In this document: positions 1 through 34,113 of the stretch, one piece after another
How positions within the stretch are numbered: position 1 is the first letter of the stretch
How the letters are laid out: every line of letters begins with the position of its first letter
Source: an uncultured bacterium
GTDB lineage: Bacteria > Patescibacteriota > JACMRA01
Assembly: GCA_963784355.1 (NCBI GenBank)
Contig: CAWAQU010000003.1
Coordinates: 96,001-160,000, forward strand
Direction of reading: 5' to 3'
Length of the DNA stretch: 64,000 bases
Made by a program: the position numbers and the translations under genes
Notes under the pieces: generated by a model
The model's input: only the letters and a program-made list of their open reading frames with translations
What the model was told of the DNA's origin: nothing
Database searches by the model: none

Positions 1-1276
1 TTTTTATCTCAATCCCACCATTTTCCAGACTCTTTTTAGAAATAATAATTTGGACTGCACATCCTATTAAATCTGCATCTTTCAATTTCTCGCCCATACT
101 AATCCCCTGTCTGTCATCCCACAAAATTTCTTCAGCTGAGACCTTAGTATTTTCAACCAAATTGAAGGTTTTATCATCGTTTTCAACTAAACTAAATTTG
201 CCTAAATACAGATTTTGTGCTATACTTAGGATTTGATTATTTACATTTTCATCATCTTTTTCATTGATATTGGTAACAATGTGAAATTCAAAAGGCGCTA
301 CTGTTTTAGGCCATTTTAACCCTTTTTCGTCATTATATAATTCAGCAACTATGCCCATGCAGCGTGTAATACCAATACCATGAGCGCCCATTAATGGGTA
401 TTTATCTTCATTATTTTCATCTTTATAAGTTAGTTCAAAAGCTTTTGTGTATTTATCACCATATTTAAAGATATTTCCAACTTCAGCTGATACCGCCTTA
501 GTTAAATTGCTAGGTAAATCACCTTTTTGCTTTAAATCTTCATAAACTTCCATATTACAAGCAAAATTGCCCTCCTCGGAATACAGTATCTCATCTTCAC
601 CTGCCTCACATATAACTTGGAATTCATGGCTCATATTTTCAGTAAAAATTCCGCCACTTGCTTCTACTACATAAGCTTTCATGCCCATTTCAGTATAGCT
701 AGCCAGATAAGCCTGTTTAATCATTTCATAATATTTATCAAAAGATTCTTGGGTTCTATGAAAATCATACATATCTTTCATTTTAAACTCTCTGCCACGC
801 AGTATTCCGGATTTAGCTCTTAATTCATCTCTAAACTTAGTTTGTATTTGATATACAGATAAAGGTAATACATGATTTTCTGGATCTGTAATAGGTAAGT
901 CTTTCCATGATTTTATGAAATTTTTCGCAATAGGTACAACCTGCTCCTCATGACTGCAAGCAAGAGCGTATTCTGTTTTAGTTTGGCTTTCCAACTTGAA
1001 AAGAATATCAACACTATCCCATCTGCCTGTTGTTTCCCAAAAAGCTTTTGGATGTAAACTGTTCATCAGTATCTCCTGGCCGCCAATAGCATTCATATGC
1101 TTACGGACAATATTCTCAATTTTATTTAGCACCCTAAGCCCCAATGGTAGATATGAATATACCCCGGCCATGGTTTTATGCACAAATCCTGCTTTAATAA
1201 GAAGCTGAGCATTTTTACTGGTTTCATCTGCAGGTACATCTCTGCTTGTTTTAGTGAAAAGATTAGAAAGACGCAT
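1..1276 (-). CDS. proS: Prolyl-tRNA synthetase (3' end runs off the window)
   Basis: Manual translation from ATG at 1276: MRLSNLFTKTSRDVPADETSKNAQLLIKAGFVHKTMAGVYSYLPLG..., with EVGNIFKYG, MGAHGIGITR and WPKTVAPF motifs. Absent from the ORF track because there is no stop in the window. Confidence 0.95.
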   Translation of the reverse strand, partial: MRLSNLFTKTSRDVPADETSKNAQLLIKAGFVHKTMAGVYSYLPLGLRVLNKIENIVRKHMNAIGGQEILMNSLHPKAFWETTGRWDSVDILFKLESQTKTEYALACSHEEQVVPIAKNFIKSWKDLPITDPENHVLPLSVYQIQTKFRDELRAKSGILRGREFKMKDMYDFHRTQESFDKYYEMIKQAYLASYTEMGMKAYVVEASGGIFTENMSHEFQVICEAGEDEILYSEEGNFACNMEVYEDLKQKGDLPSNLTKAVSAEVGNIFKYGDKYTKAFELTYKDENNEDKYPLMGAHGIGITRCMGIVAELYNDEKGLKWPKTVAPFEFHIVTNINEKDDENVNNQILSIAQNLYLGKFSLVENDDKTFNLVENTKVSAEEILWDDRQGISMGEKLKDADLIGCAVQIIISKKSLENGGIEIK

Positions 1277-1410
1277 AATATGTTGTAATTATTTTGATTG
1301 ATAAGGTTTTAATTTTAAAAATATAATTTATCTTCAGTTTATCTAAAACAAATTTATCTTGGTCAACTCCTTAATTTATTTTAAATCTAATATAGACTTA
1401 AATTAAAAAC

Positions 1411-1430
1411 AAAAAATTCCCTATAAGGGA
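1411..1430 (-). terminator. Intrinsic terminator in the proS leader
   Basis: TCCCT-TAT-AGGGA followed by ATTTTTT on the minus strand. Confidence 0.7.
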
Positions 1431-1473
1431 TTGGAGTAAGCTTGAGCCAAAATAAAATAAATCCAGCCCAAGC

Positions 1474-1518
1474 CTATCTAGGCGGGAAATTAACTGAATT
1501 TAAGTTTGAATATTTCAT
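1474..1518 (-). CDS. Putative proS leader peptide MKYSNLNSVNFPPR (14 aa)
   Basis: ATG..TAG between a sigma70 promoter and a terminator; tandem Pro codons CCG CCT. Confidence 0.65.
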   Translation of the reverse strand: MKYSNLNSVNFPPR

Positions 1519-1527
1519 TACTCTTTA

Positions 1528-1557
1528 ATTATACCATAAATTGAAATCTGTTGTCAA
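1528..1557 (-). promoter_or_regulatory. Sigma70 promoter for the proS leader
   Basis: TTGACA-N18-TATAAT with extended -10 TG. Confidence 0.8.
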
Positions 1558-1632
1558 ATTCAACTAGTTTTTGTTAAAAATAATAATTACTCAAATTGAC
1601 ACCTTTTATAACATATTATAACCTTCGCTCAT

Positions 1633-2277
1633 ATGACAAATACAGACTACACAATTTATGTTGCAAACACGCCAAACGGTCAAAAACCTGTAATCCTGCT
1701 TGAAGAACTAGGTATAAATTATGATATTAAATTCGTAAATTTCGCTAAACAGCAACAACACGATGCAGAGTACGTAAAACTAAACCCAAATGGTAAAATT
1801 CCTACTTTAGTTGATCATACAAACGGTAATATAATTTTTGAATCTGCGGCAATTTTAATGTATCTTGCTGAAAAACATGAGCAGTTTTTACCTAAAGAAA
1901 TCAAAAGAAAATATGAGGTAATTGAATGGCTTTTCTTCCAAATGTCTGCCGTAGGACCGATGATGGGGCAACTAGGCCACTTCAAAAATTTTGCTCAAGA
2001 ACAAATTCCATATGCTATAAATCGCTATGAAACTGAAGTAAATAGATTGCTCAAGGTTTTGGATATTCAACTTGAAGGAAAAGAATTTATTGCCGGAGAA
2101 TATTCAATTGCGGATATAAATTTGTGGACCTGGATTAATAGCTACGGATTTCTAAAAATAAGCTTAGATGCTTATCCTTCTCTTAAACAATGGCACGCAA
2201 ACATGGCAGCCAACTCCAAAGTACAATCAGCTTTAGCTAAAATCAAAGAAAGGGAAATGGAAGCCAAAGGAAATTAA
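1633..2277 (+). CDS. Glutathione S-transferase family protein (YfcG/Ure2-like)
   Basis: TPNG, NPNGKIP, FESAAIL, GPMMGQ and SIADI motifs. Confidence 0.92.
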   Translation: MTNTDYTIYVANTPNGQKPVILLEELGINYDIKFVNFAKQQQHDAEYVKLNPNGKIPTLVDHTNGNIIFESAAILMYLAEKHEQFLPKEIKRKYEVIEWLFFQMSAVGPMMGQLGHFKNFAQEQIPYAINRYETEVNRLLKVLDIQLEGKEFIAGEYSIADINLWTWINSYGFLKISLDAYPSLKQWHANMAANSKVQSALAKIKEREMEAKGN

Positions 2278-2939
2278 TTATACCTACTCAAGTCCTCTTC
2301 TCTTCCGTCAGCTCCAACCTCAGCTTTATAATTTAATCCGTCTGCAAAAACCTTCCAGGAAGCCGGAATCTCTCTCAAAACTCCATACATCGTGGTTGAT
2401 AAATAGGCATCTCCAGCTATCTTATATTTTACCTCAAGCCCTACAGAATTGCATAAAAAAGTACTTCTAGGAATATGAAATAACTGAGTAACTACTACAA
2501 TGTTATCAAGCTTGAACACATTTTTGGCTCTCCAGCAGCTATCCACAGTACGCCTACCTGCATAATCAGCTATTACATCATCAGGTGGCACTTCTTTTGA
2601 AATCAAATAATCATACATCACCTGAGGCTCATTGTAATTCATTCTACGATTATCACCGGAGACTAAAATTTTAACCACTTCTTTTTTATTGTACATTTCA
2701 AGGGCAGAATCCAATCTTTCTTGTAAAATGTAGGAAGGGTTACAAACACTTAGTGATTCAGTGCGATCGCAGTAAACTCCCGCCCCTAAAACTAAAGCTA
2801 CTTTAAAATCTTTATTTTGATTTTGGCTAAAAGTAAATATGTTAAAAATCAGAAAAGGACCAACTAAAATTAGATAAATTGCCAAGCTGGTTTTAAGAAT
2901 TTTTATAAACATTATTGAATTATAGTTAATCAACTCCAC
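2274..2939 (-). CDS. SanA/YdcF (DUF218) family protein; start may be 2912
   Basis: VLGAG, VSGDN, DYAGRRT and TQxFHxPR motifs. Confidence 0.88.
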   Translation of the reverse strand: MELINYNSIMFIKILKTSLAIYLILVGPFLIFNIFTFSQNQNKDFKVALVLGAGVYCDRTESLSVCNPSYILQERLDSALEMYNKKEVVKILVSGDNRRMNYNEPQVMYDYLISKEVPPDDVIADYAGRRTVDSCWRAKNVFKLDNIVVVTQLFHIPRSTFLCNSVGLEVKYKIAGDAYLSTTMYGVLREIPASWKVFADGLNYKAEVGADGREEDLSRYN

Positions 2940-4477
2940 CTACCCCTATATTGTAAACTTTCTGCTAAATCTTTTAGTTCTATATTTTCGTGGCCAGCTA
3001 AATCAGCTATTGTTCGAGCCACTTTTAAAATGCGCATGTAGCTTCTGGCAGATAGTTTATATTTATCTACAGCTTGAGCTAGAATCTTTTCTCCTTGCAA
3101 GTCAAGCCGGCAGTATTTTTCTATCTGGGGTAAACTCATCTCAGAATTTGTATGAACATTTTGGTTATAAAATCTTTTAGTCTGAGTATCTCTAGCTTTT
3201 TGGACTCTTTGTCTAACTGTTTCAGAGTTCTCACCTAAAACTTTATTTTGTAGCTCATCTTTACTAGGCCTGTTTACTTCTACTTGCAAATCAATTCTAT
3301 CTAAAATCGGACCACTAAATTTAGCTTGATATCTAGCAATAGCTGCTCTATTTTGAGGTTTATTAAATCCGTCTGCATCGTTTGGATCGTATCCGCTTGG
3401 AGTTGGATTGGCAGCAGCTAAAAGGTAAAATCTACTTGGGTATATTACTGACCCCGAAGCTCTGGAAATAGTCACAAAACCGTCTTCCAAGGGCTGCCTT
3501 AGAGCTTCAATAGACTCACGGTTAAATTCCGGAAATTCATCTAAAAATAGCACTCCACGATGAGCCAAAGAGATTTCTCCCGGCCTCAATTTGGTTCCAC
3601 CGCCAACTAAAGAAATATGAGAAGAGGAATGGTGAGGAGATCTAAAAGGCCGCTTAGTAAACAAATTACCTCCATGCAAAAGCCCTGCTACAGAATATAT
3701 CTGAGTAACTTCCAATATCTCCTTTTCAGTAAGTCTTGGTAAGATAGTTGGGTAGCTTCTAGCAAGTAAAGTTTTTCCCGATCCCGGTTGTCCAATAAAC
3801 AGTACATTATGACCACCACTTGCAGCTATTTCTAGGGCTCTTTTAGCCATTTCTTGCCCCCTTACATAAGCTATGTCATTTATCAAAAGACCGTCTTCAG
3901 TCAAAAACTGCTTTTCATCACTTTCCAGATTTTCAAGATCCAAGGGAACAACCGGATCCAACTTGATTTCTTTATTTAAAAACCTAACTAGTGTATCTAG
4001 ATTTTCTATTGCAAATATTTCAATATCTTTAACCAAAGCCGCCTCAGTGACATTTGCTGCCGGTACAAAAACTTGCTTATAGCCTTGTTTTCTGGCCCAA
4101 AGACAAACCGTCAATACCCCTGTAACGGGTCTAAGTCTACCATCCAGTGACAATTCACCCAAGAATAGGGCTTTTTCTGGTAATTCCACACTAACATGAC
4201 CGGTCAATTTTAAAATACCTACAGCAATAGGCAAATCAAATCCTGAGCCCGATTTTACAATATCTGCGGGAGCAAGATTGATGGTAACTTTTCCCAGTGG
4301 AAACTCAAAACCGCTTTGTTTAAACCCGGATTTTATTCTTTCCTTGCTTTCTTGTATAGCCTTATCCGGCAAACCCACTACTACCACAGCCGGTAAACCT
4401 GGTGATAAATCGACTTCCACTTCTATTTCTCTAGCTTCTAATCCTAATGTGGTAGCCGTGAAGATTTTGGTAATCAT
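2930..4477 (-). CDS. comM: YifB/ComM Mg-chelatase-like AAA+ ATPase
   Basis: VGLPDKAIQES, GQPGSGKT, RSPHH and GEISLAHRGVLFLDE motifs; start placed at MITKIF. Confidence 0.95.
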   Translation of the reverse strand: MITKIFTATTLGLEAREIEVEVDLSPGLPAVVVVGLPDKAIQESKERIKSGFKQSGFEFPLGKVTINLAPADIVKSGSGFDLPIAVGILKLTGHVSVELPEKALFLGELSLDGRLRPVTGVLTVCLWARKQGYKQVFVPAANVTEAALVKDIEIFAIENLDTLVRFLNKEIKLDPVVPLDLENLESDEKQFLTEDGLLINDIAYVRGQEMAKRALEIAASGGHNVLFIGQPGSGKTLLARSYPTILPRLTEKEILEVTQIYSVAGLLHGGNLFTKRPFRSPHHSSSHISLVGGGTKLRPGEISLAHRGVLFLDEFPEFNRESIEALRQPLEDGFVTISRASGSVIYPSRFYLLAAANPTPSGYDPNDADGFNKPQNRAAIARYQAKFSGPILDRIDLQVEVNRPSKDELQNKVLGENSETVRQRVQKARDTQTKRFYNQNVHTNSEMSLPQIEKYCRLDLQGEKILAQAVDKYKLSARSYMRILKVARTIADLAGHENIELKDLAESLQYRGRWS

Positions 4478-14756: not shown

Positions 14757-14766
14757 CTAATCAGAT

Positions 14767-14882
14767 ATCGGCTTTGGCCTACTTTCCCCGGAATCTGCAT
14801 TCCAGTATCATCAGCGTAGCTGCGTTTCAAGACTCTGTTCGGAATGGGAAGAGTTGGTTCCACAGCACTTGGAAAACCGACA
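14767..14882 (-). rRNA. rrf: 5S rRNA, stand-alone; ends approximate
   Basis: CCCATTCCGAAC loop C, GATGATACT and GGGAAAGTAGG motifs; terminal helix TCGGTTTT/AAAGCCGA. Confidence 0.93.
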
Positions 14883-14887
14883 TTTAT

Positions 14888-14917
14888 ATATTAAACACAT
14901 GATTTAGATTTTGTCAA
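14888..14917 (-). promoter_or_regulatory. Sigma70 promoter for the 5S rRNA
   Basis: TTGACA-N18-TAATAT ending about 6 nt before the 5S 5' end. Confidence 0.7.
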
Positions 14918-21263: not shown

Positions 21264-21276
21264 AGGCTTATATAAC

Positions 21277-21299
21277 AAAAAATCCCCTTTAGGTGGGGA
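21277..21299 (-). terminator. Leader terminator upstream of the AstE-family gene
   Basis: TCCCC-ACCTAAA-GGGGA followed by TTTTTT. Confidence 0.75.
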
Positions 21300-21334
21300 A
21301 TTAAATTTAATTTTAATAATGATAATAAACTAAA

Positions 21335-21391
21335 CTATTTCCCCTTGTGTGGAGTGACCATAATAATACAAAGGAGACCAGAGTTTAACAT
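21335..21391 (-). CDS. Putative leader peptide MLNSGLLCIIMVTPHKGK (18 aa)
   Basis: ATG..TAG between promoter and terminator; the 3' codons contain the anti-terminator AAGGGGAA. Confidence 0.68.
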   Translation of the reverse strand: MLNSGLLCIIMVTPHKGK

Positions 21392-21404
21392 ACTATATAC
21401 TTTA

Positions 21405-21433
21405 ATTATATTGAAAAATGCAAATTGTGTCAA
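21405..21433 (-). promoter_or_regulatory. Consensus sigma70 promoter
   Basis: TTGACA-N17-TATAAT. Confidence 0.85.
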
Positions 21434-22185: not shown

Positions 22186-22198
22186 AAAATTTAATATT

Positions 22199-22220
22199 AA
22201 AAAATCTCCCTAAATGGGAG
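22199..22220 (-). terminator. Leader terminator upstream of the peptidase C26 gene
   Basis: CTCCC-ATTTA-GGGAG followed by ATTTTTT. Confidence 0.75.
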
Positions 22221-22253
22221 TGATAAAAAATTGGTATAGATAATTTTGCTCCC

Positions 22254-22310
22254 TTAATTTGGATTGTCTATGTCACAAGTACAAGCTAAAAGTAACGCAA
22301 AATTTAACAT
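22254..22310 (-). CDS. Putative leader peptide MLNFALLLACTCDIDNPN (18 aa)
   Basis: ATG..TAA starting 6 nt after the -10 box; GGGAG anti-terminator directly after the stop. Confidence 0.68.
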   Translation of the reverse strand: MLNFALLLACTCDIDNPN

Positions 22311-22316
22311 GCTTTA

Positions 22317-22345
22317 ATTATGGCAAATAATCTATTTCGTGTCAA
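22317..22345 (-). promoter_or_regulatory. Sigma70 promoter
   Basis: TTGACA-N17-CATAAT. Confidence 0.8.
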
Positions 22346-22473: not shown

Positions 22474-23019
22474 TCAACTAAACTGATAGCCTTTCAATTG
22501 ATTTTTATGGTTTTTAAAATCAAGATCAAACTTGCCGACCAGATCCCAAAAAGATTTAGAGTGGTTTTTTTCTTTTACATGAGCAAGTTCATGGATTGCC
22601 ACATAGTCTAGTAGCTCAAGTGGCACCAAGGCCAGTCTCCAGTTTAGACTAATCACATTTTTACCGCTACAAGAACCCCAGCGCGTATTAGCACTTGAAA
22701 GACGAAATTTAGTATAATTTAAGTCCATAACTTCTGACCAATGATCCAGTCTAGACTTAAGTAAAACTCTGGCTTTCTTTTTAACTTCAACCTCTTCGCT
22801 TTTAGCAACCCCAAGATTGGGGGCAGTATTTCGCTTTCTTTCTAAAACTCTTTTGATAGTATTTTGTATCCAAATCTGTTTTTTTTGAATAAAATCGTGT
22901 ATGAGATTTAAATTTGCTCTATTGGGTGCCCTTACTATCAATTCCGCATCTTTGGTGATTTGCAGACTGAGAGTTTTGCGTTTTGAGTAAATGATGTTTT
23001 TGGGAGTAATAAGGCTCAT
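22474..23019 (-). CDS. YgjP/DUF45 zinc metalloprotease-like protein
   Basis: RKTLSL, RWGSCS, HELAH and NHSxxFW motifs. Confidence 0.9.
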   Translation of the reverse strand: MSLITPKNIIYSKRKTLSLQITKDAELIVRAPNRANLNLIHDFIQKKQIWIQNTIKRVLERKRNTAPNLGVAKSEEVEVKKKARVLLKSRLDHWSEVMDLNYTKFRLSSANTRWGSCSGKNVISLNWRLALVPLELLDYVAIHELAHVKEKNHSKSFWDLVGKFDLDFKNHKNQLKGYQFS

Positions 23020-26000
23020 TATGATTCTTTTGATTCAAAAAACCTAGCTACATTCCAGATTTTATTTCCAAAATTGCGATATTTTTCACACATTTTGTCC
23101 GCAAGTTTTCCACCGAGTCTAAAATTACGATTTGGAATCATGTTGCTCATCATCGCCAATCTAAGACTATCTGAAGAAAATTTTTCAATCTGATCTTCCA
23201 CATTTAACCCGTTACCTAGGGATTTGCTCATTTTTCGTCCATGCTCGTCTAGAACAGTTGGGTGAATAACTACATTTTGGTAAGGAGTGCTGCCTGTAAA
23301 GTATTTTGAGACCAACATCATGCGCACAATCCATTGGTAAAATATCTCTCTGGCACTAACTAAATCTTTGGTAGAGTAATATGTTTCAAAATCAGTATTT
23401 TTCTGCCCTTGCAGATGGTCTAAATATCCAAGTGTACTAAGCGGCCACAAACAAGAACTAAACCATGTATCTAGTATTTTTGTTTCCTGCATCCAATTTC
23501 CTGGAATTTCAGGTTTTTCCGTACCGATTTGGATTTTTTCTTGGACTGCAGGATCATTTTGCCACTCATTAAAATTATAAAAAATGCGATTTGGATTTTT
23601 TTCTAAATTGTACCACACAGGGAATCGATGACCCCAAACCAGGTCTCTTGAAATACACCAGTCTTTTACACTTTCCAGATAGCTTATTGCTCTGTCTTTA
23701 AACTCTACCGGGTAAAAATTAGTTTCCTCAGCAGCTTGTAAACCGATTTGCTGTAAATTATTGGGTTTCTCAAGCCAAATTACTACAAGACCGTTGCTTT
23801 GAATTTTGTTGTAGTATTGCTCACCAAAAAGATTTTTATAGGTTTCTTTTATATCATTTATGGTATAATTTTCTTGAATTTCGGGTACAATTTGTGTGAA
23901 ATCAAGTTTTACACTTGCAGCTGAATCTAGATTCTGATATGTCTCAACTTTTTTAATGTTAAATTTGTAAATTTTGTTGTTTACTTTATCATTTAATTCT
24001 ATAATATCTCCTGATTTCATATCACCAAAGTATTTGTCTGGTTCTTCAGGATTTAAAGCCCTAGTTTCAACAGATTTTTCTCCTGATAGGATTTTATTTA
24101 AAATATCTAACTGTAGATCATTTCTAAAATTTAAAGACCAGGTTTTAGTATTGCTATCTTCACCAGTACTTTTTACTACAGGATTAGTGTAGCTCAAGAA
24201 GAACTCTTCTGAAATTAGGGGTTCAATAACCGTTTTTGATCTCTCGCAAATTACCACATTATGCTCATAATCCCAATTTATATCCAGTTCTTCACCAATT
24301 AAATCACGTAGAAATTTTATTCCTTCTTTGTATGAGTAGTTTGCTGGATCAAAAGCTTCACTTTTTAGACTTTTGGCTACTTTTTCCCTAATTTTTGCTT
24401 CCTGTTCAATAAATTCGGTTTTTACTGGTACAAATTCTGTTTCTATAAGTTTTTTAATAACTGCTAACCTACCCTGCTCTACCGTCAACCCTTCAAACTC
24501 ACCACAAGCTTCAGTAAGTTTTCCATCTCGATTTATAGGATGCTTAAATCCAAAGCTATACCAACTTTTATTTAAAAATTCTTGATATAATTCATAATCA
24601 AATTGATCACTGGCCGGAGTGATTTTTAATATACCTGTACCAAAATCCGGATCGACTTTTTCAGAAATCAGAAGCCTAATCTTTTTTATATCCAAACTGG
24701 GTAGCTCAAAAGATATACCTAAAAGACCCGTTTTAATTGCTTCAATGGTTTCCAATGCAATTTTTTCATCAAATCCCCCATGGTCTCTTTCAAAAAGATC
24801 TAAGTTAAAGTATTCATAAAATTTACTTGGGTGCATGGCGATTCCAATATCCCCAAAAATTGTCTCCGGCCTAACAGTTGATACTTTTACTCTGGGTAAT
24901 TCAAGAGCGGATTTAATATATTTAGAAGCAAACTCATACAAAAAGGCTTTGTCCGGATTTTTATTTTGATCAAACTCCACCCCACTAAATTTATACTCAA
25001 AAGTAATAAACGGATCCACTCTATTTTCGTACTCAATTTCCCCGGCCACATCACTCACCGCAGTTTGCAGGCCAACGGACCAATTCACCAAATAGCTCCC
25101 TTTGTAAATCAACCCATCTTCCCAGTACTTTTGAAAAGCATAATTTATCATTTTATTAGCTCGCTCGTCTAAAGTAAACAAACTTCTTTGATAGTCCGGA
25201 GTGTCTCCCAAAATAGAACTTTGCATTTTTTGATGATCTCGCCACTCATCCACCTTGGACCAAGCTAAATCAACCCAAAGTTCTCGGTTATTTTGTTTTA
25301 ACCACTTTGGCCAAGTATTTTTTTCAATATCTTTCAATTCAGGTGCTGTTTCTAAGATTTTTTCATCAAAATCACCTTTTTTAATCAATTTATCAATCAC
25401 CCCTTCCAACTGTATTCCGGCATGATCTACTCCCGGATACCATAAGGTTTTTTGAGCTTTTTGTCTGTGAATTCTGGTTAAAGTGTCCATTAAATAGTGT
25501 TGAAAAGCATGTCCTGTATGTAAGGCTCCAGTAAGATTTGGCGGGGGCATTAAAATGCTATAATTCTCGTTAGCACCTACCTCCTTATGTAAAAATTCAA
25601 TTATTTTAGGACTGATTGGGTACATTTTAGTCGCATAAAAGTCATATTTTTCCTGCTCAGATGTAAATTCATTAGTGGTGTGTCCAATTTCATCTGGTAT
25701 AAAGAAAGTAGAATAAGAATTTTCAATTCCAAATATAGGCTTTTCTGTAGCAGTACCCTGTGTGATATGTTCTTCAGTTAATATTTCTCCATTTGGCAAG
25801 GCAATAGCCAGAGCCTGCACCACATACATTTTTCTGTCTTTTCCTTCAAGTTTTTCTAAGGCCTCATGAATTTTTTGCTCGGCAAATCTATCCCTATCTT
25901 CTTTAGACAATGAGTTGAAATATTCATCACTATCTCCAAACATTACTTTTTTACTATCCGTTCCAGGCCAATCTAAAGCTGAAAAGACAAAGCCCCTGTC

Positions 26001-26345
26001 TTGTGAAATTGTGGGTAAATTACTAATTTTAGCATATTCTTTAGCTTTAGTCAGGGCATCCTGTGTAAAACTCTCTCCGGTTTCTTCAACTTCAGGAAAA
26101 TCAATATGTGGTAAATCATTCAAAGTCAGCAGTTCAAAATGCTTATCTAGAGCAAGTTTTTGCCAAGCTAATTTAAAAATTTTAATTTTGTGTTTGTTGG
26201 TAGTTGCAAACAGGACTTTTTTTAATGAAGTCTCTAAATTTTGATTTTTTATTTGAATTTCAGGTGAACCCACTCCATTATTTTGCCAGGTATTATAGAT
26301 ACTTTCTTCAAATTCTTTCGGATTATAGCTGCTAGGCAAAGACAT
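23019..26345 (-). CDS. valS: Valyl-tRNA synthetase catalytic part, with inserted Ham1 and ASCH domains, lacking the C-terminal anticodon-binding region
   Basis: PPPNLTGALHTGHA, GVDHAGI, STVRPET, DWCISR, LDTWFSS, KMSKSLGN and NKIWNVARF motifs. Confidence 0.9.
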   Translation of the reverse strand: MSLPSSYNPKEFEESIYNTWQNNGVGSPEIQIKNQNLETSLKKVLFATTNKHKIKIFKLAWQKLALDKHFELLTLNDLPHIDFPEVEETGESFTQDALTKAKEYAKISNLPTISQDRGFVFSALDWPGTDSKKVMFGDSDEYFNSLSKEDRDRFAEQKIHEALEKLEGKDRKMYVVQALAIALPNGEILTEEHITQGTATEKPIFGIENSYSTFFIPDEIGHTTNEFTSEQEKYDFYATKMYPISPKIIEFLHKEVGANENYSILMPPPNLTGALHTGHAFQHYLMDTLTRIHRQKAQKTLWYPGVDHAGIQLEGVIDKLIKKGDFDEKILETAPELKDIEKNTWPKWLKQNNRELWVDLAWSKVDEWRDHQKMQSSILGDTPDYQRSLFTLDERANKMINYAFQKYWEDGLIYKGSYLVNWSVGLQTAVSDVAGEIEYENRVDPFITFEYKFSGVEFDQNKNPDKAFLYEFASKYIKSALELPRVKVSTVRPETIFGDIGIAMHPSKFYEYFNLDLFERDHGGFDEKIALETIEAIKTGLLGISFELPSLDIKKIRLLISEKVDPDFGTGILKITPASDQFDYELYQEFLNKSWYSFGFKHPINRDGKLTEACGEFEGLTVEQGRLAVIKKLIETEFVPVKTEFIEQEAKIREKVAKSLKSEAFDPANYSYKEGIKFLRDLIGEELDINWDYEHNVVICERSKTVIEPLISEEFFLSYTNPVVKSTGEDSNTKTWSLNFRNDLQLDILNKILSGEKSVETRALNPEEPDKYFGDMKSGDIIELNDKVNNKIYKFNIKKVETYQNLDSAASVKLDFTQIVPEIQENYTINDIKETYKNLFGEQYYNKIQSNGLVVIWLEKPNNLQQIGLQAAEETNFYPVEFKDRAISYLESVKDWCISRDLVWGHRFPVWYNLEKNPNRIFYNFNEWQNDPAVQEKIQIGTEKPEIPGNWMQETKILDTWFSSCLWPLSTLGYLDHLQGQKNTDFETYYSTKDLVSAREIFYQWIVRMMLVSKYFTGSTPYQNVVIHPTVLDEHGRKMSKSLGNGLNVEDQIEKFSSDSLRLAMMSNMIPNRNFRLGGKLADKMCEKYRNFGNKIWNVARFFESKES

Positions 26346-32352: not shown

Positions 32353-34113
32353 ATGTTTAGACGTTTATTGTTGGTATTTACCGACCCGGAACTAAGATCT
32401 AAGTTGATCAAAATTGTATTATTATTGATTGCCGTCAGATTTTTAGCACATATCCCTATTCCTGTATTACAAACTCAAGACATCAGTCCTTTAATTGATT
32501 CTGATGCAGCTTTAGGCTTGTTGAATACAATTTCAGGTGGATCATACGGCCAGCTATCTTTTGTCATGCTTGGAGTTGGACCATATATTACCGCTTCTAT
32601 TGTTATCCAACTTTTGGGTGTAATTGTACCTAAAATCAAAGAAATCCAAAAAGAAGAAGGAGAGCTTGGACAACAAAAAATCAACAGATGGACTAGAATT
32701 TTAACCGTACCATTAGCAGCTCTTCAAGCTTGGGGTATCTTGCAGTTTTTATCTAGCTCAAATGTAAATGGTGGAGCACAAATCCAATTACCTGCCGTAC
32801 TAACCAAATCAGAAATAACTTGGGAAACTTTTGGATATTGGTTTGCTATAATTATGGCTATGGCAGCCGGTAGTATGATTATGATGTGGATTGGTGAAAT
32901 CATCACTGAATACAAAATGGGTAATGGTATCTCACTCATGATTTTATCAGGTATCGTCGTAAGATTACCAAATCAATTAGTGAAATATTGGAATGCGGTT
33001 TATCCTAATTTCCAAGAACTTTTTAGCAAATTCAGTTTTCAAAAAGCTGCTAATCTAGAAGTTTGGAAAGCACTTTTATGGGGAAATCCTGCTTGGAACG
33101 CTGTAAGAAGTTTCTTACTTTTATTTTTGGTATTTTTTGCAGTACTGTTATTAGTTGTATTTGTTAATGACGCTGTTAGAAAATTAGTAGTAATTTATTC
33201 TCGACGTGGACATACAGAAGGAAAATCCAGGACATTATCAAGCGTAAAAGCCGATTTACCGATTAAAGTAAATATTGCTGGTGTATTACCAATTATCTTT
33301 GCGGTATCTTTTATCATGTTCCCTCAGATCATCGGCCGTTTCCTATTCACCTCCAATGTATCGCAAGTTCGTACGGTAGCTCAACAAGTAGATAATTACC
33401 TTAGTGTAAATAATAAAGAAAACACAGTTGCTCCGGAAAATTTACCAAAAGAAAACCTCGGATTTTATAACTCTAAAGATCCTGTCGCCCTTAAAGCTGC
33501 AGAAAACTACGACACAACAGTAGGACAAGAATTGTTCGGTTTCACATTAAGTACTCTTAAAGTAGATTATAATTATAAATTACCGGAAAATCCTACTGAG
33601 GATGACAAGAAAAGAGAAGAGGCTAAAAAGCTTAAGAATGTGTTTTTTGATGGTACTTTCTTAAGATTTGAGCTACCAAGTAATAATCTAGGATTTTTAC
33701 CTGAATTTGGAGTAAGATGGAATGGAGTTCTAGCATATTCACTCTTTTACTTCTTGTTGATTATCTTCTTTACTTATTTCTACACTTCTACTATTGCCTT
33801 TAAAACCGATGACGTGGCTGAAAATCTCCAAAGAAGTGGAGCTTATGTTCCAGGATTCAAACCCGGTGAGGAAACTCAAAATTACTTGAGCTATGTAGCA
33901 AACAGATTAAATGTTGCAGGAAGTATTTTCTTGGCGCTGATTGCTATAATTCCTTTCTTCTTCAATAAGAGTTTGAATTTCGGTGACGGTACATTAAATG
34001 GAATTGTAGGTGGTACTACTCTATTAATCTTAGTATCTGTAACTATAGAAGTATTAAGAGCTATTGAGGCTCAAGCTACCTCTATTGATTATAATAGATT
34101 TACTAAGTACTAG
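32353..34113 (+). CDS. secY: Preprotein translocase subunit SecY with large loop insertions
   Basis: LGVGPYITASI, WIGE..GNGISL, AGVLPIIFA, PGFKPG and GGTTLLI motifs. Confidence 0.96.
   Translation: MFRRLLLVFTDPELRSKLIKIVLLLIAVRFLAHIPIPVLQTQDISPLIDSDAALGLLNTISGGSYGQLSFVMLGVGPYITASIVIQLLGVIVPKIKEIQKEEGELGQQKINRWTRILTVPLAALQAWGILQFLSSSNVNGGAQIQLPAVLTKSEITWETFGYWFAIIMAMAAGSMIMMWIGEIITEYKMGNGISLMILSGIVVRLPNQLVKYWNAVYPNFQELFSKFSFQKAANLEVWKALLWGNPAWNAVRSFLLLFLVFFAVLLLVVFVNDAVRKLVVIYSRRGHTEGKSRTLSSVKADLPIKVNIAGVLPIIFAVSFIMFPQIIGRFLFTSNVSQVRTVAQQVDNYLSVNNKENTVAPENLPKENLGFYNSKDPVALKAAENYDTTVGQELFGFTLSTLKVDYNYKLPENPTEDDKKREEAKKLKNVFFDGTFLRFELPSNNLGFLPEFGVRWNGVLAYSLFYFLLIIFFTYFYTSTIAFKTDDVAENLQRSGAYVPGFKPGEETQNYLSYVANRLNVAGSIFLALIAIIPFFFNKSLNFGDGTLNGIVGGTTLLILVSVTIEVLRAIEAQATSIDYNRFTKY

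Follow-up and report, generated by a model that had tools for sequence, protein, structure and literature searches.

A candidate leader-peptide attenuator with two proline codons upstream of proS in a patescibacterial genome

The proS upstream region

The window (the whole 64,000-nt stretch of DNA that was analyzed) begins inside an aminoacyl-tRNA synthetase (aaRS) gene on the minus strand. Its open frame of 443 aa starts at 1276, and NCBIfam profile search assigned the product to TIGR00409 with 378 bits (cut-off, 306.7), a prolyl-tRNA synthetase (ProRS). The intergenic region upstream is AT-rich and divergent. It carries the following elements, which were observed, with their spacing, directly in the sequence.

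1528..1557, minus strand: promoter P1, with -35 TTGACA at 1557-1552, an 18-nt spacer with TG, and -10 TATAAT at 1533-1528
1474..1518, minus strand: mini-ORF MKYSNLNSVNFPPR, 14 sense codons plus TAG at 1476-1474
1480..1485, minus strand: Pro codons CCG (1485-1483) and CCT (1482-1480), the proposed sensing codons
1463..1487, minus strand: hairpin H1, a local alternative in which 1487-1478 pairs with 1472-1463; includes the Pro codons
1434..1478, minus strand: hairpin H2, the proposed anti-antiterminator, 1478-1462 with 1451-1434, U-rich 10-nt loop
1428..1464, minus strand: candidate antiterminator GGAUU:AAUCC, 1464-1460 with 1432-1428
1405..1430, minus strand: terminator-like site, UCCCU-UAU-AGGGA plus U-run; stem at 1430-1418, then AUUUUUUGUUUUU at 1417-1405
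1277..1404, minus strand: spacer of 128 nt from the terminator to proS, containing TTGACC
1366-1361, minus strand: TTGACC, a possible second promoter (P2) below the terminator, within the spacer
2..1276, minus strand: proS, short-form ProRS without the editing insertion, running off the window end

P1 is absent from the earlier note on this DNA. It scored 12/12 against the sigma-70 consensus, with the TG extension in addition. The window contains three 12/12 promoter matches, two of which head cassettes of the kind described below. P1 lies 280 nt from the proS ATG, and the 90th percentile of TTGACA-to-start distances in this genome is 141 nt. From the promoter spacing, we infer a transcript start at about 1522-1519.

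In 97 kb of upstream sequence, the sense strand contained 247 copies of TTGACA; the accompanying -10 logo was weak. TTGACA-type -35 boxes with a poor -10 are the usual promoters of this genome. The distances from TTGACA to gene starts peaked at 35-39 nt (51 of 234), and only 33 of 955 genes had a Shine-Dalgarno-like 4-mer, indicating that the mini-ORFs look like leaderless mRNAs. Counted from the first nucleotide of TTGACA in P1, the ATG of the proS mini-ORF is at 39 nt; the corresponding distance is 35-42 nt in the other six cassettes. The proS mini-ORF is placed at the distance of leaderless genes, and its ATG appears to be a credible translation start.

The mini-ORF and its proline codons

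The earlier note had described an ORF at 1518-1474 that ends in Pro-Pro just before the stop and has no other GC-rich codons. This description was borne out. The codons are ATG AAA TAT TCA AAC TTA AAT TCA GTT AAT TTC CCG CCT AGA, then TAG, and CCG and CCT are the only ones with at least two G or C. The claimed match between the leader amino acid and the downstream synthetase also held, as the CCG-CCT leader precedes the TIGR00409 gene. CCG and CCT make up 13% and 44% of the Pro codons in the genome, tRNA-Pro genes with GGG and UGG anticodons were detected, and an efp gene is present.

Adjacent Pro-Pro would occur in 13 random intergenic sense codons with P = 0.010, and at least two Pro among 13 codons with P = 0.055. 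The genome has 1016 intergenic mini-ORFs of 8-25 codons that start with ATG, and 17 of them contain Pro-Pro. The C-rich stretch of the leader reads Pro-Pro in one of its three frames. In the leader peptide, the dipeptide is followed by Arg (F-P-P-R), a context that we take not to be among the strongest polyproline stall contexts.

A family of cassettes in the genome

We scanned the genome for strong promoters that are followed after 25-200 nt by a hairpin and T-run and that have a gene on the same strand within 250 nt. This gave six cassettes built alike. A seventh cassette has a TTGACA-only promoter. The common layout is a promoter, an ATG 35-42 nt after TTGACA, an ORF of 12-18 codons, and a C-rich/G-rich terminator of 5-7 bp. 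The cassettes share a TATAAT-TAAAG promoter end. A genome-wide probe for this end, ATAATTAAA[GA]-like, gave 171 matches, 127 of them inside genes, and no further cassette. Terminator-like sites before gltX, one tRNA gene and several others were 3' terminators of upstream genes or tRNAs and were left uncounted.

Four of the seven cassettes precede aaRS genes (thrS, lysS, proS and serS), out of 18 aaRS gene entries inspected. The NCBIfam scores of the other three were 560 bits for thrS, 402 for lysS and 341 for serS. The thrS leader has six consecutive Thr codons (6 Thr in 15 codons, P = 6.6e-5), and the lysS leader has 5 Lys in 15 codons (P = 0.0068). These cognate codon runs are unmistakable; the proS leader has only two cognate codons. 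The serS leader has a single Ser codon (P = 0.61), indicating that cognate enrichment is not universal among the cassettes.

Two further cassettes lie in the window before genes that do not encode aaRS.

22198..22345, minus strand: sister cassette A, with promoter at 22345-22317, ORF at 22310-22254 (MLNFALLLACTCDIDNPN) and terminator CTCCC-ATTTA-GGGAG at 22220-22206
21276..21433, minus strand: sister cassette B, with 12/12 promoter at 21433-21405, ORF at 21391-21335 (MLNSGLLCIIMVTPHKGK) and terminator TCCCC-ACCTAAA-GGGGA at 21299-21283

Cassette A has GGGAG at 22253-22249, directly after the ORF stop, and the gene behind it (22185-21430) is class I glutamine-amidotransferase-like. The gene behind cassette B is AstE/aspartoacylase-like. 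Neither leader contains an obvious cognate codon run. Single Pro codons were observed near the C-terminus of three sister peptides.

The terminator and alternative pairings

The terminator that the earlier note had placed at 1411-1430 was recovered as a 5-bp hairpin plus T-run at 1430-1405. The stem TCCCT/AGGGA has five pairs, three of them G-C, and a loop of 3, and it is followed by ATTTTTTGTTTTT to 1405. Positions 1-3000 of the window contain five terminator-like sites, compared with 1.7 ± 1.3 in shuffles. Short C-rich/G-rich hairpins of this kind recur at other cassettes and at gene 3' ends in this genome. Judged by its sequence, the proS terminator is a weak one of the type that is usual in this genome.

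Both alternative pairings that had been named earlier exist. In H1, TCCCGCCTAG (1487-1478) faces TTGGGCTGGA (1472-1463) with 9 of 10 positions paired, two G-U pairs counted. H1 is in the minimum free energy (MFE) structure of a 254-nt RNA and is absent from that of the 108-117-nt leader. The second pairing is H2, the dominant predicted hairpin, with a 17-pair stem in the MFE structure of the leader. The GGA of GGAUU lies in the upper part of this hairpin, and its base shares nucleotides with the last codon and the stop. The GGATT:AATCC antiterminator, which the earlier note had flagged as less clear, is indeed complementary, but over just 5 bp. It has a 27-nt loop and covers 3 nt of the terminator 5' arm. 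Its MFE was -2.5 kcal/mol, and it was the MFE structure in only one footprint setting. The terminator contributes about -5.5 kcal/mol, as the difference between the full leader (-24.0 kcal/mol) and the RNA without the terminator 3' arm (-18.5 kcal/mol). The fold of the whole leader was unremarkable (z = -1.08; 30 of 200 shuffles folded at least as well).

Two other structures were considered and rejected. A pseudoknot containing both H2 and GGAUU:AAUCC seems sterically unlikely, with a stem of 11-17 bp and a crossing loop of 5 nt. The Asn-Phe-Pro codons could also pair over a distance with the terminator 3' arm, but a ribosome on the Pro codons would cover this helix. In the models, this helix probably explains the terminator probability of 0.76-0.82 in naked RNA.

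Folding with ribosome footprints

The leader RNA lacking the terminator 3' arm was folded under ribosome-footprint constraints, and sequestration of the terminator 5' arm was scored for each P-site codon. For proS, sequestration was 0.28 with the P site at Pro12 and 0.09 at Pro13; it did not exceed 0.03 at any of the remaining 12 codons or in naked RNA. With footprints from P+12 to P+16, the peak always fell at Pro12 to Arg14 and reached at most 0.28-0.39 across settings. With the P+14 footprint, it occurred when the ribosome waited at the stop codon, not on Pro-Pro. The only antiterminator-permissive ribosome positions in the proS leader were P-site Pro12 to Arg14.

Nine comparison cassettes gave 5'-arm sequestration of 0.8-1.0 until the ribosome passed the cognate codons. 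The equilibrium terminator probability at cognate codons was 0.0-0.18 for thrS, two relatives' thrS leaders, lysS and serS. For proS, it was 0.76-1.0 at every modeled ribosome position. For the stalling idea of the earlier note, this analysis gave a mixed result: the permissive positions coincide with the Pro codons, but the terminator was never outcompeted. By these models, proS is the weak member of the cassette set.

These results bear on whether the Pro codons are a sensor. The leader may be a genuine attenuator of the family that senses mini-ORF translation as such (through ribosome supply or coupling) or is largely constitutive, with CCG-CCU serving as the C-rich stretch for H1. There are two Pro codons only, three sister peptides have a single Pro, and the C-rich stretch pairs with the G-run in H1; therefore, the Pro codons may be a structural by-product. 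Hairpins of a C-rich and then a G-rich arm also occur at the ORF ends of thrS leaders in MFE structures. The Pro-Pro frame of the C-rich stretch, the lack of an obvious cognate run in the serS and the two non-aaRS cassettes, and the formation of the proS terminator in all modeled states fit this explanation as well. However, in the leader MFE structure H2 dominates and the Pro codons are unpaired, so the main structure does not depend on them. In addition, the downstream gene is proS itself, Pro-Pro is rare among the intergenic mini-ORFs, and the only permissive ribosome positions fall on the Pro codons. We consider it unlikely that the codons have no sensing role in a working attenuator.

The spacer and a possible second promoter

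The TTGACC named in the earlier note is present on the minus strand at 1366-1361, 3' of the terminator. A bypass promoter there is possible because TTGACA-type -35 boxes are the genome's main promoter signal. The 128-nt spacer is longer than those of the thrS, lysS, serS and both in-window sister cassettes (about 20-60 nt). P1 might then start a separate short transcript, either a small RNA or a gene for a 14-residue peptide, or the leader might be a decayed attenuator that always terminates, with proS transcribed mainly from TTGACC. The long spacer is consistent with this, and so are the usual promoters of the genome, since the other aaRS genes have a TTGACA-type box about 45-60 nt before the start. 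The weak antiterminator and the lack of leader conservation point the same way.

The candidate box itself argues against it. TTGACC was barely enriched in the genome's upstream regions (31 on the sense strand and 26 on the antisense strand), and no clear -10 box was recognizable 3' of it in the spacer sequence. It is 90 nt from the proS ATG, within the 75th-90th percentile of TTGACA-to-start distances (79.5-141 nt). The same layout is also found in cassettes without room for a second promoter. Rfam detected only tRNA and 5S rRNA in the whole window at the gathering score, and three chance-level matches (E 1.6-9.5) in region 1200-1700 at E ≤ 10, none of them at E ≤ 1. T-box (RF00230) gave no match in 1200-1700 at the gathering score or at E ≤ 10. 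Together, a separate transcript with an independently transcribed proS seems an improbable account.

Conservation in relatives

Conserved Pro codons upstream of proS in relatives had been proposed as a check, and they did not turn up: the leader cassette was present in 0 of 29 relatives' proS upstream regions. A leader DNA search of 25 family genomes returned short matches only (E ≥ 7e-4). The ProRS of the relatives found was at most 69% identical in a metagenome scan and at most 73% identical in a genome-contig scan, and none of the upstream regions inspected carried the proS leader. As the nearest ProRS is 73% identical, this comparison is low in power.

The thrS cassette behaved differently from the proS leader. 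A Thr-run ORF with a terminator of like type was found before thrS at 4 of 22 loci, which belong to four genera, so that the thrS cassette of this genome recurs in three other genera of its family. Separately, terminator-like sites lacking the cassette layout were observed before lysS or serS in seven relatives.

A chance arrangement, in which a strong promoter, a short ORF of random origin and a weak hairpin with a T-run happen to lie together without regulatory role, was weighed against these data. The ordinary z-score of the leader fold, the 1.7 terminator-like sites per 3 kb in shuffles and the unconserved leader are what such an arrangement would give. It does not readily account for one detailed layout in seven cassettes, four of them before aaRS genes, nor for a 12/12 promoter, an ATG at leaderless distance and a Pro-Pro probability near 0.01. 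We regard chance as highly improbable.

A model for the proS leader

The best explanation is that 1557-1405 on the minus strand is a leaderless, Pro-sensing leader-peptide transcription attenuator of proS. On the sequence evidence, we put this reading at about an even chance of being right. The Pro-responsive attenuator of the earlier note is supported by the cassette family before aaRS genes, the codon runs of thrS and lysS, the conservation of the thrS version and the leaderless ATG distance. The family context and the sister codon runs are direct observations. The points against it are the 5-bp antiterminator, the low 5'-arm sequestration (at most 0.28-0.39) and the occurrence of the leader in no relative. 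A look-up of sequencing runs for this stretch gave no RNA run and one DNA run, which contained 0.07 of the sampled words.

The transcript start, ORF translation, stall and structural switch of the proS leader are the putative steps of the model. P1 would start the transcript 0-3 nt ahead of the AUG. A ribosome would load on the 5' end, with no need for a Shine-Dalgarno sequence, and translate the 14 codons. H2 would form by default and keep GGAUU (1464-1460) occupied, whether the ribosome is absent, still at the beginning of the ORF or already released. The terminator at 1430-1418 and its U-run would then halt most transcripts about 130 nt before proS. If a ribosome lingered on CCG-CCU, owing to scarce charged tRNA-Pro or slow Pro-Pro bond formation, its leading edge would melt the base of H2 and leave GGAUU uncovered. 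Free GGAUU could pair with AAUCC (1432-1428) and take three of the five bases of the terminator 5' arm. More polymerases would then read through into proS.

As a tentative extension, a modular attenuator kit, in which the TATAAT-TAAAG end is combined with a leaderless mini-ORF and a terminator of 5 bp, may have been recruited to different aaRS genes, repeatedly and in recent times. The thrS version would be old (four genera), the proS, lysS and serS versions would be private to this genome, and proS would have a young, minimal attenuator reading two Pro codons. The output of proS would then depend on Pro-tRNA charging and on EF-P-assisted Pro-Pro bond formation.

Comparison with known systems

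To our knowledge, hardly anything has been learned about how genes are regulated in Patescibacteria (CPR), whose members are uncultured and have reduced genomes. A full-text literature search found no paper joining leader peptides and attenuators or attenuation with Patescibacteria or the candidate phyla radiation. The proS cassette probably adds a new phylum to the known leader-peptide attenuators. If the Pro-sensing reading is true, Patescibacteria would tune aaRS genes by ribosome-sensed leaderless leader peptides rather than T-boxes. One genome would then contain attenuators that range from textbook-clear (thrS and lysS) to marginal (proS and serS), a gradation that could help in studying the origin of attenuators and the simplest design that still works. 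With a Pro-Pro sensor ahead of proS, aaRS supply would moreover be coupled to the peculiar kinetics with which proline is translated.

In E. coli, the ORFs of the pheM-pheST and trp/his/thr attenuators are led by a Shine-Dalgarno sequence and contain several cognate codons, and the antiterminators are robust. The proS leader resembles these attenuators in its short ORF with cognate codons, its intrinsic terminator and pairings that would be set by ribosome position, and it shares the aaRS target with pheST. It differs in its number of cognate codons (two), in the length of its antiterminator (5 bp) and in the strong hairpin that would serve separately as anti-antiterminator. The trp attenuator is described in passages of PMC4007540 and PMC1183508.

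The closest parallel in start type is Deinococcus deserti. In the relevant passages of de Groot et al. (2014, PMC4007540), leaderless leader peptides are reported before aaRS and amino-acid biosynthesis genes, with cysS, thrS and tyrS named; 14 leader peptides are given, and transcription attenuation is predicted. As there, the mini-ORFs here are predicted to lie at or near the transcript 5' end, lack a Shine-Dalgarno sequence, are enriched in the cognate residue and precede aaRS genes (PMC4007540, same passages). In that work, D. deserti proS is classed as leaderless; the parts of the text and supplement searched contain no proS leader peptide (PMC4007540). Unlike D. deserti, this genome belongs to the Patescibacteria, and its cassettes have the TATAAT-TAAAG promoter end and 5-7 bp terminators.

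Proline-codon leader ORFs, mgtL and mgtP, are described for the Salmonella mgtA and mgtCBR leaders in part of PMC3641672, and EF-P and transcription-translation coupling are treated in part of PMC5021804. As in mgtL and mgtP, consecutive Pro codons here would report charged tRNA-Pro or slow Pro-Pro translation through leader RNA structure. The genes under the control of mgtL and mgtP serve Mg2+ transport and virulence, these ORFs are not leaderless, and in some of these systems the action is through Rho. Here, the target is proS and the ORF appears leaderless.

T-boxes (RF00230) also act before aaRS genes, where they give antitermination that depends on the cognate tRNA. The proS leader differs in that it would sense through the translating ribosome, not through tRNA-RNA binding. 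Sections of Naville and Gautheret (2010, PMC2965389) describe a His leader peptide that replaces a T-box before hisS paralogues in bacilli, and argue that attenuators 'hop' and arise repeatedly. The proS cassette is similar in having a putative leader peptide in a T-box's stead before an aaRS-family gene; it is in another phylum, and the bacilli ORF is not described as leaderless in those sections (PMC2965389).

A minor observation was made in another family of the same phylum. A T-box-like match precedes proS at locus L030 (1234-1400), with 48.9 bits, below the gathering score of 93, and E = 7.4e-10.

The leader region of proS

The earlier note had proposed a Pro-Pro leader peptide ahead of the prolyl-tRNA synthetase gene. 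Its listed elements were all found at the positions below, and the cassette is confirmed as an observation.

1557-1528, minus: sigma-70-type promoter, TTGACA, 18-nt spacer with TG, TATAAT (12/12 consensus)
1518 (ATG) to 1476-1474 (TAG), minus: mini-ORF of 14 codons, MKYSNLNSVNFPPR
1485-1483 and 1482-1480, minus: Pro codons CCG and CCT, the sole G+C-rich codons of the mini-ORF
1478-1462 with 1451-1434, minus: long hairpin H2 (predicted fold), 3' of the mini-ORF
1430-1418, minus: terminator-like hairpin UCCCU-UAU-AGGGA with a T-run to 1405, 3' of H2
Terminator to proS, minus: A+T-rich spacer of 128 nt, with TTGACC at 1366-1361
1276 (ATG), minus: proS, NCBIfam TIGR00409, 378 bits (cut-off 306.7)

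The proS gene codes for the short enzyme form, which lacks the editing insertion. Only three 12/12 promoter matches occur in the 64-kb window (33.7% G+C), the promoter of this cassette among them, and the mini-ORF ATG lies nine bases past the -10 box.

Promoters and translation starts in the host genome

The source genome (1.14 Mb, 13 contigs, 81% complete; the window is C3:96001-160000) was analyzed for start signals. In 97 kb of upstream sequence, TTGACA occurred 247 times on the sense strand and 147 times on the antisense strand, with about 33 expected from base composition. A weak -10 logo followed it. Promoters of this genome appear to lean on TTGACA, combined with a poorly defined -10 box. 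The distance from TTGACA to the start codon peaked sharply at 35-39 nt (51/234), and only 33 of 955 genes carried a Shine-Dalgarno-like 4-mer at -18 to -5. Together, the spacing peak and the rarity of these motifs suggest frequent leaderless translation, and the start regions as a whole suggest widespread leaderless or Shine-Dalgarno-independent initiation. The ATG of the proS mini-ORF is 39 nt from its TTGACA and therefore falls within the leaderless-spacing class.

A 5S rRNA gene stands alone at 14766-14917 (minus) with its own TTGACA promoter (14917-14890); 16S and 23S genes are absent from the window. On another contig, near-identical copies of a promoter-like segment with about 30 nt downstream lie 630 nt apart (C12:153892 and C12:154519, plus), each followed by a different gene.

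A family of cassettes

The genome was scanned for promoters of at least 10/12 that had a hairpin and T-run 25-200 nt further downstream and, within 250 nt, a gene on the same strand. Ten distinct places were found, six of which shared one detailed layout. In these, the -10 box is usually followed by TAAAG or TAAAA, the ATG lies 6-13 nt past the -10 box, and the ORF has 12-18 codons. The terminator 3' arm (CTCCC-loop-GGGAG type) is repeated in a G-rich 5-7-mer located at the stop codon or immediately past it. A seventh cassette has TTGACA only as its promoter. Downstream genes were named by NCBIfam.

Table. Cassettes of the source genome (cassette; position, strand and locus; peptide; downstream gene). 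Positions without a contig prefix are window positions.
thrS; C3:64670-64520, minus, L048; MNSLQTTTTTTNPLKG; thrS, 560 bits, GNAT fusion
lysS; C6:38120-37985, minus, L050; MKLVVFSKKNSKKTSQ; lysS, 402 bits
serS; C4:7529-7665, plus, L049; MFQVHFITSIIL; serS, 341 bits
proS; 1557-1405, minus; MKYSNLNSVNFPPR; proS, 378 bits
Window 22345; 22345-22198, minus; MLNFALLLACTCDIDNPN; glutamine-amidotransferase-like gene
Window 21433; 21433-21276, minus; MLNSGLLCIIMVTPHKGK; AstE/aspartoacylase-like gene
C12:110130; C12:110130-109990, minus, L052; MFFATFIFSLILPDNTGA, Phe-rich (4 Phe/18); unannotated 145-aa gene

The thrS leader contains six consecutive Thr codons, the lysS leader five Lys codons and the serS leader one Ser codon. 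Calculated against intergenic triplet frequencies, the chance probabilities of the cognate codons were 6.6e-5 for thrS (Thr 6/15), 0.0068 for lysS (Lys 5/15) and 0.61 for serS (Ser 1/11), and that of adjacent Pro-Pro in the proS leader was 0.010. PP was present in 17 of 1016 real intergenic mini-ORFs. Judged from sequence, the thrS and lysS cassettes are clear candidates for leaderless leader-peptide attenuators. They are the strong members of the family; proS is the least convincing one.

Synthetase genes were located by ten Pfam searches of the genome, with pheT added. A cassette was found upstream of 4 of the 18 gene entries inspected, and the remaining entries mostly had a plain TTGACA about 45-60 nt ahead of the start.

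The window 22345 and 21433 cassettes, presumably the "other two cassettes" of the earlier note, lie either side of the glutamine-amidotransferase-like gene. Both peptides begin Met-Leu-Asn, and no obvious single cognate residue was seen in either.

ThrRS carries an N-terminal GNAT acetyltransferase fusion. In the 1108-aa valS product (23019-26345, minus), an N-terminal RdgB/HAM1-like XTP/dITP diphosphatase domain (~42-231) is joined to the synthetase. The match of SecY (32353-34113, plus; 586 aa) to its profile falls into two blocks, 15-341 and 465-583, implying that some 120 residues are inserted. In lysS, the reading frame is broken at C6 ~37848-37820 (minus): residues 1-49 of relatives' LysRS align to one frame, and the remaining residues to the +1 frame. 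The junction adjoins an AAA-AAG Lys-Lys site within an A-run, and could be a homopolymer assembly error or a frameshift site. This same gene carries the Lys-codon leader.

Conservation among relatives

A Thr-run ORF with the same terminator type was found before thrS in 4 of 22 family loci, representing four genera: the source genome and relatives G016 (MPNNHVTTTTAIPIQTGVALVV), G014 ((V)KNFVITTTTTTTCKSRG) and G022 (MQIFVTTTTTAQIRE). Its presence in four genera argues that this cassette class is real and subject to selection. Those before lysS and serS were each found in the source genome only (1/25 loci).

The proS leader had no comparable backing from relatives. Among 30 proS loci, only the window's own had the cassette (0/29 relatives); in one relative a terminator-like site occurred by itself, 321 nt upstream, with the ORF absent. 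A DNA search of 25 other family genomes with 1395-1560 gave short low-complexity matches only, the best of them spanning 42 nt (E = 7e-4). Among named ProRS relatives, the nearest, both from "uncultured Patescibacteria group bacterium" MAGs, share 73% and 62% identity. Because the best identity is 73%, the missing homologue says little on recent conservation.

Footprint-constrained folding

A ribosome usually covers 28-30 nt. We assumed a footprint of -12 to +15 relative to the first base of the P-site codon, forced it unpaired, and calculated the equilibrium probability of the terminator stem at each ribosome position.

Table. Terminator-stem probability (cassette; naked RNA; with ribosome).
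thrS, source genome; 0.97; minimum 0.14-0.18, P-site Thr8-Thr10
thrS, G014; 0.97; minimum 0.00-0.02, P-site Thr9-Thr12
thrS, G022; 1.0; minimum 0.04, P-site Val5/Thr6
thrS, G016; 0.98; minimum 0.75, weak dip
lysS; 0.39; ~0 through Lys9, 1.0 from Ser11 on
serS; 0.73; minimum 0.01, P-site Thr8/Ser9
Window 22345; 1.0; minimum 0.83, no clear dip
proS; 0.82; no dip, 0.76-1.0 throughout, 0.99 on the Pro codons

In a second test, more kinetic in spirit, the RNA ended before the terminator 3' arm, and sequestration of the 5' arm was scored. In nine comparison cassettes sequestration was 0.8-1.0 until the ribosome cleared the last cognate codons. Past them it was at most 0.2 in seven cassettes, ~0.25 in thrS of G016 and ~0.1 or below in window 21433. 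For proS it was 0.01 in naked RNA and 0.00-0.01 from Met1 to Phe11, then 0.28 at Pro12, 0.09 at Pro13 and 0.03 at Arg14. When the footprint was varied from +12 to +16, a single peak of 0.10-0.39 always fell inside Pro12 to Arg14; with +13 and +14 it was at Arg14, corresponding to a ribosome waiting at the stop codon. Footprint folding of this leader, suggested earlier as a check, placed the sequestration peak only at Pro12-Arg14; at equilibrium the terminator stayed formed at every position.

The structure under the peak was GGAUU (1464-1460) paired with AAUCC (1432-1428), with an MFE of -2.5 kcal/mol. The antiterminator suspected in the earlier note appeared as a predicted structure, but a weak one. 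H2 was -18.5 kcal/mol and the terminator about -5.5 kcal/mol, by difference from -24.0; the whole leader folded no better than shuffles (z = -1.08). In the proposed mechanism, a ribosome on Pro-Pro would melt H2, the putative anti-antiterminator, starting at its base. GGAUU:AAUCC would act as antiterminator and UCCCU/AGGGA as terminator. As modeled, the switch is qualitatively coherent, with the Pro codons at the sole position where it can work, and quantitatively marginal.

A possible second promoter and the nature of the proposed stall

The proS terminator-to-gene spacer is long, compared with about 20-60 nt in thrS, serS, lysS and the two window cassettes. The TTGACC in it, 90 nt ahead of the ATG, could be a second, unregulated proS promoter, since most of the promoter signal in this genome resides in the -35 box. 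However, upstream regions show hardly any enrichment of TTGACC (31 sense versus 26 antisense), and no -10-like box follows it.

The genome encodes EF-P and has tRNA-Pro genes for the anticodons GGG and UGG. Of the two leader codons, CCT is the major Pro codon of this genome (44%), and CCG is a minor one (13%). The predicted Pro-Pro stall might report tRNA charging or slow Pro-Pro chemistry; the sequence fits either.

Relation to known systems

Leader-peptide attenuation is classical, as in the trp, his and pheST attenuators. We consider it probable that the proS cassette is a member of a genuine family of leaderless leader-peptide attenuators; whether its two Pro codons form a working sensor for proS is an even call. 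The system type is known, and the phylum had no earlier description of one: a full-text literature search returned no paper joining leader-peptide attenuation with Patescibacteria or the candidate phyla radiation, and in a search on proS leader peptides and proline codons no proS leader was among the matches listed.

The closest precedent found for leaderless leader peptides is Deinococcus deserti, with 14 leader peptides translated from the mRNA 5' end and predicted to attenuate aaRS or biosynthesis genes (PMC4007540). Named targets include cysS (main text) and thrS and tyrS (supplement file 2), whereas the D. deserti proS appears in that list simply as a leaderless gene (PMC4007540). In bacilli, a His leader precedes hisS paralogues, and attenuators were proposed to switch sensing systems and "hop" (PMC2965389). 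Salmonella mgtA and mgtCBR also have leader ORFs with Pro codons (PMC3641672).

The proS leader itself gave no T-box match, which ruled out that identity. In another family of the phylum, a divergent T-box-like element precedes proS (locus L030 of genome G030, 1234-1400; 48.9 bits, E = 7.4e-10), and at locus L150 a match at 351-539 lies directly before proS (24.6 bits, E = 0.0013). Both are below the T-box gathering score of 93. These matches suggest that divergent T-boxes control proS in other lineages.
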